DNA of 64,000 nt from contig JABDJB010000017.1 of the NCBI GenBank assembly GCA_013003425.1, forward strand, positions 2,794-66,793. Direction: 5' to 3'. The position numbers and the translations under genes were made by a program. Of the stretch, positions 46,945 to 48,650 are shown one piece after another (within the stretch, counting starts at the first letter, position 1; each line of letters opens with the position of its first letter). The notes below the pieces were generated by a model, which saw only the letters and a list, made by a program, of their open reading frames with translations, made no database searches and was not told the origin of the DNA. The stretch comes from Gammaproteobacteria bacterium. Its GTDB lineage: Bacteria > Pseudomonadota > Gammaproteobacteria > Steroidobacterales > JABDKV01.

Positions 46945-47358
46945 TCAGGCAGAACCGCCACACTTGCCTTCGCCGCATTTGCCCTCGGCGTCTTTATCGC
47001 CGCCGCACTTGCCTTCACCGCATTTGCCCTCGGCATCTTTATCGCCGCCGCACTTGCCTTCACCGCATTTGCCCTCGGCATCTTTATCGCCGCCGCATTT
47101 GCCTTCGGCATGTTTGTCGCCGCCGCATTTGCCTTCGCAGTCGCCCTTGTTCTTGTCCTTGCGGTCATGGCCCTTGTCGCCGCCACACTTTCCTTCACCA
47201 CACTTGCCCTCGCCGACATCAACCATGTAGCCGCTCGACAGGGTCGTCATGCTGAACGGTGATGCATCAGCTTTGGCGGCCGCACCAACGGCCATGGACG
47301 CTGCCAGTGCAGCGCCCACTGCCAGGCTCAGGGGTTTTACACTCATTTTATCTGACAT
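46945..47358 (-). CDS. secreted EGKCG-repeat Cys-rich peptide, HvfA / bufferin-2-like RiPP metallophore precursor candidate
   Basis: SD GAGGAGAG 6 nt before the ATG. Signal peptide MSDKMSVKPLSLAVGAALAASMAVGAAAKA and conserved block SPFSMTTLSSGYMV. Then 10 x EGKCG plus 1 x GDCE (11 Cys) with DKDA/DKHA linkers, encoded by 45-bp tandem DNA repeats (46950-47215). Confidence 0.7.
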   Translation of the reverse strand: MSDKMSVKPLSLAVGAALAASMAVGAAAKADASPFSMTTLSSGYMVDVGEGKCGEGKCGGDKGHDRKDKNKGDCEGKCGGDKHAEGKCGGDKDAEGKCGEGKCGGDKDAEGKCGEGKCGGDKDAEGKCGEGKCGGSA

Positions 47359-47412
47359 CTGCTCTCTCCTCAGTGGTTCGTCCCCGAACGGGACCTCATT
47401 AAAGATGGGCGG

Positions 47413-48105
47413 TCAGGTTGACCACTCCACCGCCTCAATAAATTTCTGTTCGACCGGCCGGGGATAAGTCGCGCCCGAACCGATCACGGCAATGCTGCCG
47501 CCCTTTACCGGCACGATCAGCCCAAGAAAACCGTCTTCGTCGATTGGCATGGTCTTGCTGACCTGCTCATCAGGCAGCAGCAGTACGGTTACCGGCCCTT
47601 GTTCGCTGTTGACCACCAGGTGTGACACCAGGTGGCCGCGGAAGTAACAGATACCCGCGTGCACTACGTGATCGATATCCTGCGTCAGGCGGACGCCGGT
47701 TCTCTCCAGCACCTGCACCAACCGCTTGCGCGGCACCAGTTCCGTCTCGCTCGGCACCAGTAGAGCAGCCTCGTGGTAGAGGTGCTTGATTACATGACGT
47801 GGCAGCCGCTCGGGACTGTAGCTATTGAAAACTGTAAACGCCGCTGCGAATACGACGACAACACTGGCAGCGAGCGCTACCCGGCGCCCGCGTCGACGAG
47901 ACTGACCAGTTGCTGCCAGCATGACCCGGGCTTCCAGATCAGCCGGCGTTTCCACCATCATGGCATCGCGCAGGTGGGAATCGAGCTGCTGCGTTTCACG
48001 GGTGAAATCAGCGCAGGCACGACAAGCCATGCGATGACGCATAGCGTCGGCGCCGATATGGGATGGTTCGCTGGTAATCAGTCTGCGATAATCGATGCAG
48101 TTCAT
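47413..48105 (-). CDS. anti-sigma factor (zinc-finger N-terminus, one TM; DUF3379-like)
   Basis: N-terminal [14 protein letters not shown]...HRMACRACADF (H-x3-C-x2-C ZAS-like), TM VALAASVVVVFAAAFTVF, ~140-aa periplasmic domain. ATGA-type overlap with the sigma gene stop. Confidence 0.7.
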   Translation of the reverse strand: MNCIDYRRLITSEPSHIGADAMRHRMACRACADFTRETQQLDSHLRDAMMVETPADLEARVMLAATGQSRRRGRRVALAASVVVVFAAAFTVFNSYSPERLPRHVIKHLYHEAALLVPSETELVPRKRLVQVLERTGVRLTQDIDHVVHAGICYFRGHLVSHLVVNSEQGPVTVLLLPDEQVSKTMPIDEDGFLGLIVPVKGGSIAVIGSGATYPRPVEQKFIEAVEWST

Positions 48106-48650
48106 TGTTGTGCCTTAACGCTGTCTCTGTTCAGACTCTTCTGCAGTTTCTTGCGCGCGCGGAACAAACGCGTAAGAACCGCACCCTGGCTCAGGTCCAT
48201 GAGCTCTGCGATTTCCGCCGTGCTGTAGCCCAGCAGGACCTGCAGCACCAGCGGTTCGCGATAGTCGTTATCCAGTTCGAAAATCAATTGCCGCAGCTCA
48301 CCAATTTCTGCTGCCTCGTCGCGGCAGCTAAGCAGCGCTTCGGGAAAATCCTTCGCCTGCAGGTCCACCGGCTCCGGCCGCTGCCGCTCATAATAACGGG
48401 CATGCTCGCGGCGGATGATGCGCATCAGCCAGCCCTTGGCGGCGGCAGGCTCCCGCAGCGTATGCAGCGAGCGCCAGCCACGCAACAGGGCTTCCTGCAC
48501 CAGGTCTTCGGCCAGGTGCGGATCACGAGCCAGCCACAGTGCATAGCTGTGCAGCTCGGGCAAAACGCTGCGTACCAGCGCCTCAAATTGGAAATGCTTC
48601 GACATCTCTGCCTTACCAGACCGGGCGACAGCCCGATTTATTACCGCCAC
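48102..48650 (-). CDS. ECF (group IV) sigma factor
   Basis: Region 2 [17 protein letters not shown]...[13 protein letters not shown] and region 4 [36 protein letters not shown]. The start may be Met-16 (ATG 48605, preceded by TAAGGCAGAG) instead of GTG 48650. Confidence 0.85.

Follow-up and report, generated by a model that had tools for sequence, protein, structure and literature searches.

An HvfA-family EGKCG-repeat precursor gene in a DUF3379 anti-sigma/ECF sigma operon of an uncultured marine gammaproteobacterium

The hvf operon of nontypeable Haemophilus influenzae encodes HvfX (DoxX), HvfA, HvfB (multinuclear non-haem iron oxidase, MNIO) and HvfC (DUF2063), and is served by an unlinked extracytoplasmic function (ECF) sigma factor, RpoE2, with the 67-aa zinc-binding anti-sigma (ZAS) protein HrsE. 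The regulons of Haemophilus RpoE2 and Neisseria SigE consist of msrAB and the DoxX-COG3767-UPF0276-DUF2063 cluster (PMC7907618), the latter being the hvf operon (PMC11252979). We analysed a 64-kb stretch of DNA from an uncultured marine gammaproteobacterium (64,000 nt of contig JABDJB010000017.1; the whole stretch is called the window below), the minus strand of which carries a three-gene operon for an ECF sigma factor, a DUF3379 anti-sigma and an EGKCG-repeat peptide. The locus is best described as an HvfA-family precursor gene placed inside a DUF3379-type ZAS anti-sigma/ECF operon and detached from its maturases. This arrangement is new; the peptide family itself, orphan precursors and the control of such loci by ECF factors had been described before. 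A preliminary description of this DNA, made from the letters alone, had suggested an uncharacterised sigma-gated variant. The wiring is indeed new, but the claim has to be narrowed to a variant of a known system, because both ECF control (RpoE2/HrsE in Haemophilus, SigE in Neisseria and SigF/NrsF in Caulobacter; PMC7907618, PMC11626156) and stand-alone precursor genes (PMC12452194) have been described.

Like the hvf system, the locus combines a Sec-exported precursor with repeated (A)EGKCGEGKCG, ECF sigma control and a ZAS-type anti-sigma, and the inferred regulon of the DUF3379 pairs, like that of RpoE2, holds MsrA-like and DoxX genes. Unlike in hvf, the precursor gene lies in the regulator's own operon, with MNIO, HvfC and DoxX absent from the 64 kb. 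Whereas HrsE is a small cytoplasmic peptide, the anti-sigma here spans the membrane, has 230 aa and carries a periplasmic domain. The precursor differs from HvfA in that its N-terminal region has no Cys pair, and with the HvfA equivalog model NF050188 it reaches 59.8 bits where the cut-off is 95, so it is a family member and not an HvfA orthologue. The Neisseria SigE/MseR pair is likewise an ECF sigma factor with a ZAS anti-sigma, set over methionine sulfoxide reductase and an MNIO/DoxX cluster, and the motif-defined regulon of the Steroidobacteraceae DUF3379 pairs has the same content; MseR is a small cytoplasmic anti-sigma, unlike DUF3379. We take the Neisseria DoxX-DUF692-DUF2063 cluster, with its enzymes, to lie beside sigE.

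In Caulobacter vibrioides, the ECF sigma factor SigF and the membrane anti-sigma NrsF are also encoded beside a copper-stress locus for ribosomally synthesised and post-translationally modified peptides and control Cys-derived metallophore peptides (PMC11626156). However, NrsF (PF06532) is a multi-pass protein, whereas DUF3379 is single-pass and of ZAS type, and the Caulobacter precursors are Buf1 and Buf2 with maturases in the same clusters, whereas the precursor here is of the EGKCG type. The peptide has its EGKCG repeats and signal peptide in common with the Buf_EGKCG/oxazolin family (PMC12452194) and with the fontiphorin FonA/FonBC (PMC12668002), and like them it occurs in Pseudomonadota. 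The repeat unit has 15 residues (45 bp) here versus 17 residues described for Buf_EGKCG/fontiphorin, and the beta-helix put forward there was not confidently predicted for the present peptide. The survey in PMC12452194 gives sigma and NrsF anti-sigma genes for Buf1 clusters only and never mentions DUF3379.

We prefer, with moderate confidence, to read the locus as a three-gene, sigma-autoregulated stress operon, in which an envelope signal releases the sigma factor, the genes are co-transcribed and a peptide matured in trans buffers copper. The inducing signal, the co-transcription, the maturation in trans and the copper binding are predicted parts of this scheme. In the resting state the ECF sigma factor would be bound by the zinc-binding, ZAS-type part of DUF3379 on the cytoplasmic side of the membrane. 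An envelope signal, most likely copper and/or oxidant stress (HOCl, H2O2), would free the sigma factor after being sensed either by the zinc-thiolate site or by the conserved His, Glu and Cys of the periplasmic part. The sigma-RNA polymerase would start at GTAATAA-N14-CGGTCT, a few bases before the sigma ATG, and the transcript would run through sigma, anti-sigma and peptide to a terminator at 46887-46858, with an intercistronic hairpin and a strong Shine-Dalgarno (SD) sequence favouring the stability and translation of the peptide cistron. An unlinked MNIO/HvfC pair may then turn the peptide Cys into copper-binding 5-thiooxazoles in the cytoplasm, and the modified peptide would be exported by Sec and buffer periplasmic Cu(I).

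The peptide gene (46945..47358, minus strand) encodes a 137-aa EGKCG-repeat precursor of the HvfA/oxazolin family. The family membership proposed earlier stood when the profiles were run: the peptide matches NCBIfam NF050137 (KCGExKCG_twice) with 70.4 bits (cut-off 19.5) in five matched stretches, and fails only the HvfA equivalog model. The label "bufferin-2" was wrong, as the name Buf2 belongs to the Buf_6/12Cys family, from which the EGKCG/oxazolin peptides are set apart as a third family (PMC12452194). A Buf2-like seed (L045 9009-9329, so called from its Cys pattern and its position before an MNIO gene, with no curated model) detected nothing in the window (best E 1.3); the same seed found five related peptides elsewhere (L numbers denote the related loci). 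The length, signal peptide, Cys content and 45-bp repeats given in the preliminary description were confirmed. Codons 1-29 (47272-47358, minus strand) encode the signal peptide, MSDKMSVKPLSLAVGAALAASMAVGAAAKA, cut before DA, with a basic N-terminus, a hydrophobic core and an AxA site, as read from the sequence. This Sec signal peptide stands in place of a leader peptide and is conserved in alignment A4. It is followed by the conserved block SPFSMTTLSSGYMV (47221-47262, minus strand), the N-terminal PFxMxxLSSGYM block, and by the Cys-repeat region (46954-47214, minus strand). The peptide has exactly 10 EGKCG and one GDCE, with 11 Cys, and the GGDKDAEGKCGEGKC units are written in a 45-bp DNA tandem repeat (46955..47106, minus strand; 3.4 copies, 96% matching by Tandem Repeats Finder).

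Could this low-complexity ORF be a non-coding tandem repeat? We rejected this possibility on the signal peptide, the SD sequence, the conserved block near the N-terminus and the many detectable homologues (1322), most of them from environmental assemblies and carrying the JGI name "uncharacterized low-complexity protein". AlphaFold2, run on a 48-sequence alignment, gave no confident fold and no usable model, and the beta-helix idea from the literature was neither confirmed nor used. The peptide lengths in near-identical strains are 107, 137, 144, 174 and 181 aa, with variable repeat copy number (L001, L005, L006 and L007 versus 46945-47358 of the window) and an identical or nearly identical anti-sigma. 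The L005 copy is frameshifted into an alternative KANAV frame. Same-strain short-read contigs end within or just past the repeat of the peptide gene and several stop inside it, which could reflect real contraction/expansion or assembly collapse. In L022, L036, L051, L027, L029, L049 and L052 the Lys of EGKCG is replaced in most repeats (EGSCG, EGTCG, EGHCG) and EGKCGEGKCG is retained only at the C-terminal end, which may bear on MNIO recognition. L036 has two EGxCG-repeat genes (10761-11126 and 11375-12022) in tandem behind one DUF3379 gene, the first with EGTCG, EGHCG and EGQCG variants.

The sigma gene (48102..48605, minus strand; 167 aa from ATG 48605) encodes Sigma70_r2 (PF04542, E 8e-18) and r4_2 (PF08281, E 2e-14), which is the ECF pattern of regions 2 and 4 only. 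The protein scores 81.8 bits with TIGR02937 (cut-off 42.9) and 180.5 bits with NCBIfam PRK12517, slightly below the cut-off of 197. The gene had been placed at 48102-48650; an ECF sigma gene is present there, but the GTG at 48650 is probably not the true start, making the gene 15 codons too long. The 48102-48605 frame is more likely, because GTG 48650 lies upstream of a conserved motif and public gene calls use ATG 48605.

A predicted ECF-type autoregulatory promoter occupies 48617..48646 (minus strand), with a -35-like GTAATAA (48644-48638) and a -10-like CGGTCT (48623-48618), ending 11 nt before the ATG. Related loci have GTAATAA, a fixed 14-nt gap and CGGTC(T) directly 5' of the sigma start. 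In these loci 2-11 nt separate the end of the motif from the ATG, so the leader is very short or absent. We built a weight matrix from 13 training sites and accepted sites of at least 15 bits; it placed a site at the expected position 5' of sigma in 63 of the 69 evaluable loci, 53 of them outside the training set. The window site scores 27.5 and is the sole strong one in the window, the runner-up (12.6) being within the shuffled-sequence range. We infer from this conservation that GTAATAA-N14-CGGTCT may work as an autoregulatory sigma-specific promoter. Neither in the window nor in most relatives did the matrix scan place a second site ahead of the peptide gene; in L022 and L023, by contrast, it placed an internal one there, again of the sigma-specific type. 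No sigma-70-like promoter was found in the operon region. Since the motif is single in the window, the peptide is most likely co-transcribed, and one sigma-dependent transcript spanning sigma, anti-sigma and peptide would be the simplest reading.

The anti-sigma gene (47413..48105, minus strand; 230 aa) encodes a DUF3379 protein (PF11859, E 4.7e-37; 128 bits versus the cut-off of 33.2; protein residues 1-220, model positions 1-226/232) with one transmembrane helix at about residues 76-94. The earlier account of a single-pass anti-sigma with H-x3-C-x2-C, its start overlapping the sigma stop, agrees with H24-x3-C28-x2-C31 and with the 4-nt overlap (ATGA) of the anti-sigma ATG and the sigma TGA. 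C3, H24, C28 and C31 are invariant across 138 DUF3379 members (alignment A1) and form a cytoplasmic ZAS-like motif, C3-x20-H24-x3-C28-x2-C31, with x20 shorter than in the published C/H-x23-26-H-x3-C-x2-C. In its N-terminal part the DUF3379 profile also matches the anti-sigma RsiW weakly (E 0.003). Judged by these residues, the DUF3379 protein is likely a ZAS-type membrane anti-sigma. On the periplasmic side, H108, H111, E112, C153 and H162 are invariant in 24 proteins (alignment A2). The AlphaFold2 model (mean predicted local distance difference test, pLDDT, of 81) has a periplasmic beta-rich domain with weak resemblance to RseB/MucB (Foldseek probability 0.94, E 0.16). DUF3379 is a large family (1398 clusters at the 50% identity level); our look at the literature on it returned no functional account and an unrelated mention only. 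The locus offers a first functional context for a family of ~1400 such clusters without literature.

The four operon parts of the preliminary description are all in place, with two corrections, to the sigma start and to the downstream hairpins. The 54-nt spacer between anti-sigma and peptide holds the small hairpin and strong SD reported for it. The hairpin, GTCCC-GTTCG-GGGAC (47380..47394, minus strand, read 47394-47380), has no T-run and lies 8 nt 5' of the SD, GAGGAG (47366..47371, minus strand, read 47371-47366), which stands 7 nt 5' of the peptide ATG. A GGAG-type SD is kept in related loci. A 5-7-bp GC-rich hairpin of varying sequence occurs shortly 5' of the SD in nine module loci (those with a hairpin at the same position include L016, L026, L036, L017, L051, L012, L015 and L022), and a comparable one is seen in two canonical clusters. 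The spacer hairpin may serve to stabilise or to process the mRNA of the peptide cistron. In L027, L029, L049, L052 and L043 a conserved spacer of ~300 nt stands in place of the 54 nt; it starts TGTAATTTTTTT-N-CCTGTCT, with a weak likeness to the sigma motif (scores 7-10), and could contain a small RNA or leader. Downstream of the peptide, the terminator scan detected an intrinsic terminator (46848..46887, minus strand), a 13-bp stem with 8 GC pairs (46887-46858) followed by TTTTTCATTTTT, which closes the operon. Two hairpins with T-runs had been reported after the stop; one is this classic terminator, and the first has no T-run. The next gene, tag (46223-46816, plus strand), is convergent with the operon, in agreement with its earlier placement on the opposite strand.

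The anti-sigma protein is 100% identical to MBT8136378.1 (GCA_018677295.1, a metagenome-assembled genome of a "Gammaproteobacteria bacterium") and to NNF60364.1. A comparison of orthologue neighbourhoods, proposed in the preliminary description, showed that the module is kept in Woeseiaceae-like genomes between hemB and tag. The order hemB, sigma-DUF3379-peptide, tag is conserved, flanks included, in relatives with anti-sigmas 67% and 53% identical, and the module is also present in a Woeseiaceae assembly, in a closed-looking 4.7-Mb contig (L010) and in a more distant relative. We surveyed one genome per species from the DUF3379 alignment A2, limited to Steroidobacterales-like genomes, which gave 73 loci, nearly all from Steroidobacteraceae or unclassified Gammaproteobacteria assemblies. 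Gene content was assigned by seed-based searches, crude ORF-clustering being too noisy in high-GC genomes. An EGxCG-repeat gene lies directly 3' of the anti-sigma in 14 of the 73 loci, and the gene order holds over anti-sigma identities from 67% down to ~30%. L014 retains the peptide and the topA-side flank, with no sigma or DUF3379 gene called. L028, L035, L040, L041 and many other Steroidobacteraceae have the sigma/DUF3379 pair without the peptide at the same hemB-side position, suggesting that the peptide gene is lineage-specific at this site; the pair is followed there by a convergent ~90-aa gene (ending ...RLIDLLGKAGL) and an rlmJ-like gene. In L019 a 168-aa cupin-like ORF (4567-5073) lies between DUF3379 and tag, the position of the peptide in the window; L020 looks similar, though with an ambiguous ORF call.

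The tightly conserved order of anti-sigma and then peptide could also point to a feedback loop, in which apo- or copper-loaded peptide bound to the DUF3379 periplasmic domain influences the release of sigma; the peptide gene would then be kept in the regulator's own operon for this purpose. The invariant His/Glu/Cys of this domain and its weak RseB-like ligand-binding fold (Foldseek probability 0.94, E 0.16) are consistent with such a role, but we consider it improbable: the structural match is weak, 52 of the 73 loci with a DUF3379 pair have no recognised adjoining precursor gene, the linkage is equally explained by the peptide being an output of the regulon, and the binding of peptide to domain is putative.

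In Steroidobacteraceae loci, the promoter motif precedes Buf2-like peptide genes (L044, L045, L061, L070), Buf1 (DUF2282) genes (L046, L079), DoxX genes (L044, L061) and a secreted MsrA-like gene (L044). In L045 it heads a Buf2-like/MNIO/DUF2063 operon divergent from the sigma/DUF3379 pair, and in L046 MNIO, a Buf2-like gene, sigma, DUF3379, Buf1 and DoxX lie together. Envelope defence genes of the bufferin, oxazolin, DoxX and MsrA types appear to be controlled by the sigma factor paired with DUF3379, and the inferred regulon of the related DUF3379 pairs would resemble the RpoE2 and SigE regulons (PMC7907618). The motif is a concrete tool for mapping this regulon in Woeseiaceae and Steroidobacteraceae, which recur in the retrieved marine-sediment and other environmental metagenome assemblies; together with the functional context for DUF3379 it is the most useful by-product of the analysis. 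The sites at L044 13833-13862 and 5626-5655, L061 9232-9261 and L070 9337-9366 mark candidate regulon members, namely the secreted MsrA-like gene, DoxX genes and one unassigned membrane protein.

These data also bear on the possibility that the adjacency of peptide and regulators is incidental, with the peptide transcribed from its own sigma-70 or other promoter under a different regulator and the pair controlling other genes, for instance msrA. The 54-nt spacer of the window has no sigma-70-like promoter, the order of the genes is the same from 67% to ~30% anti-sigma identity, the internal sites of L022 and L023 are of the sigma-specific type and other genomes have the motif ahead of Buf1- and Buf2-like precursors. 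Even though the ~300-nt spacers (L027, L029, L049, L052) could fit a separate promoter and canonical clusters occur without the sigma motif, we regard an incidental adjacency as very improbable.

Several results weigh against the preferred stress operon with a peptide matured in trans. The promoter is a computational motif and remains a prediction. The matrix gave no site on the canonical EGKCG clusters L089-L091, so no common regulator can be claimed for them, and for many of the sigma/DUF3379 pairs in Steroidobacteraceae no precursor lies in the vicinity. The spacer hairpin alone does not fold better than shuffled sequences (z -1.47); the single-sequence folding of such hairpins is not significant, and the argument for them is their recurrence. 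No MNIO (DUF692), DUF2063 or DoxX was detected in the 64-kb window, where the searches returned noise only (6.9 bits at best, E 0.14). The same holds for the 10 kb around each related EGKCG-module locus analysed, and accession-neighbourhood look-ups yielded no MNIO that could be assigned to this genome. Modification is, moreover, not strictly needed for a metal-buffer role, because unmodified HvfA also binds Cu(I), several ions (PMC11252979).

The window search was made with phmmer --max in six frames, using as seeds Pfam-validated MNIO, DUF2063, DoxX and DUF2282 and the Buf2-like peptide; the MNIO seeds from related loci were confirmed as PF05114 (E 7e-116 and 2.5e-109). It bears out the preliminary statement that no ORF of the window resembles DUF692, DUF2063 or DoxX, and the usual adjacency of the precursor to MNIO (PF05114), DUF2063/HvfC (PF09836) and DoxX (PF07681) is not seen here. 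Three small membrane proteins of the window, candidates for DoxX, proved to be one DUF2238, one weak GtrA-like match and one without assignment. The MNIO of L090 as a query retrieved only matches at least 78% identical, from a very abundant sediment clade. MBT8121255.1, from the same submission batch, was considered as the same-genome MNIO and rejected, since it is 15,123 accession numbers away from MBT8136378/9 and evidently comes from another bin. Two further MNIO candidates belong to other assemblies, with canonical clusters as their contexts.

In a genome without MNIO the peptide would never be modified; its disordered Cys/Lys/Gly/Asp-rich chain would serve in the periplasm as a simple thiolate sponge for metals or as a redox buffer, its synthesis being switched on when needed by its own sigma factor. 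The maturases missing from 64 kb and from 10 kb around the EGKCG-module loci, the several Cu(I) bound by unmodified HvfA (PMC11252979), the peptide without a predicted fold (AlphaFold2, mean pLDDT 45) and the replacement of Lys in several relatives (EGSCG, EGTCG, EGHCG), where enzyme recognition may relax, all agree with this. Among 2583 complete genomes with Buf_EGKCG genes, 67 have no MNIO; the other 2516 (~97%) have one (PMC12452194 Table 3), and this high share argues against an unmodified peptide, as does the linkage of DUF3379 pairs to MNIO operons, both physically and by motif (L045, L046). The PFxMxxLSSGYM block, furthermore, is strictly conserved in the orphan genes and common to cluster-encoded precursors, which points to a common partner and is otherwise hard to explain. 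We therefore hold the unmodified sponge to be unlikely.

The PFxMxxLS motif is invariant in alignment A4, made of the sigma-linked peptides with P0109 and P0046, and the latter two lie in canonical peptide-MNIO-HvfC-DoxX clusters. The canonical clusters L089-L097 have the same N-terminal motif as the window peptide, and canonical clusters with the same block adjoin rnf/nth in other sediment bacteria. For an MNIO, a peptide fragment bearing two EGKCG repeats is enough of a substrate (PMC12668002). The Cys modification of HvfA/FonA, earlier given as oxazolone/thioamide, has been reassigned to 5-thiooxazole (PMC12668002), which supersedes the heterocycle/thioamide chemistry of the preliminary description. 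We favour, with some assurance, maturation in trans by an unlinked MNIO over action of the unmodified peptide. The locus is a natural test case for a question from the MNIO literature, whether stand-alone precursors are matured in trans or act unmodified.

A bolder idea, which we consider improbable, is that DUF3379/ECF pairs are an order-wide gammaproteobacterial copper/oxidant sensor, which in a Woeseiaceae-like lineage drives an unmodified, disordered Cys/Lys metal sponge that works without MNIO and may in addition, as a ligand of its periplasmic domain, reset the anti-sigma. If true, the peptide would be a ribosomal, enzyme-free counterpart of bufferin/oxazolin with built-in feedback.

The window has a second ECF sigma-like ORF (22878-23351, minus strand, within 21737-23351), unrelated to the present finding, with no promoter-motif site near it in the matrix scan of the window; behind it on that strand come an ORF of 114 aa and a gene for a secreted protein of 259 aa that contains RRRQLERRRQ repeats. 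A palindromic element resembling repetitive extragenic palindromes (REP), with the core GGAGCGGC.TCC.GCCGCGA, forms two arrays (45709-46206 and 51340-51555). The first has 10 copies with a 48-bp period between a carboxymuconolactone-decarboxylase-like gene and tag, and the second has 4 diverged copies with a 65-bp period. Both arrays produce long spurious ORFs on both strands, and strings like their translations (AAEAAPTGG) are also present near 57300-57600.

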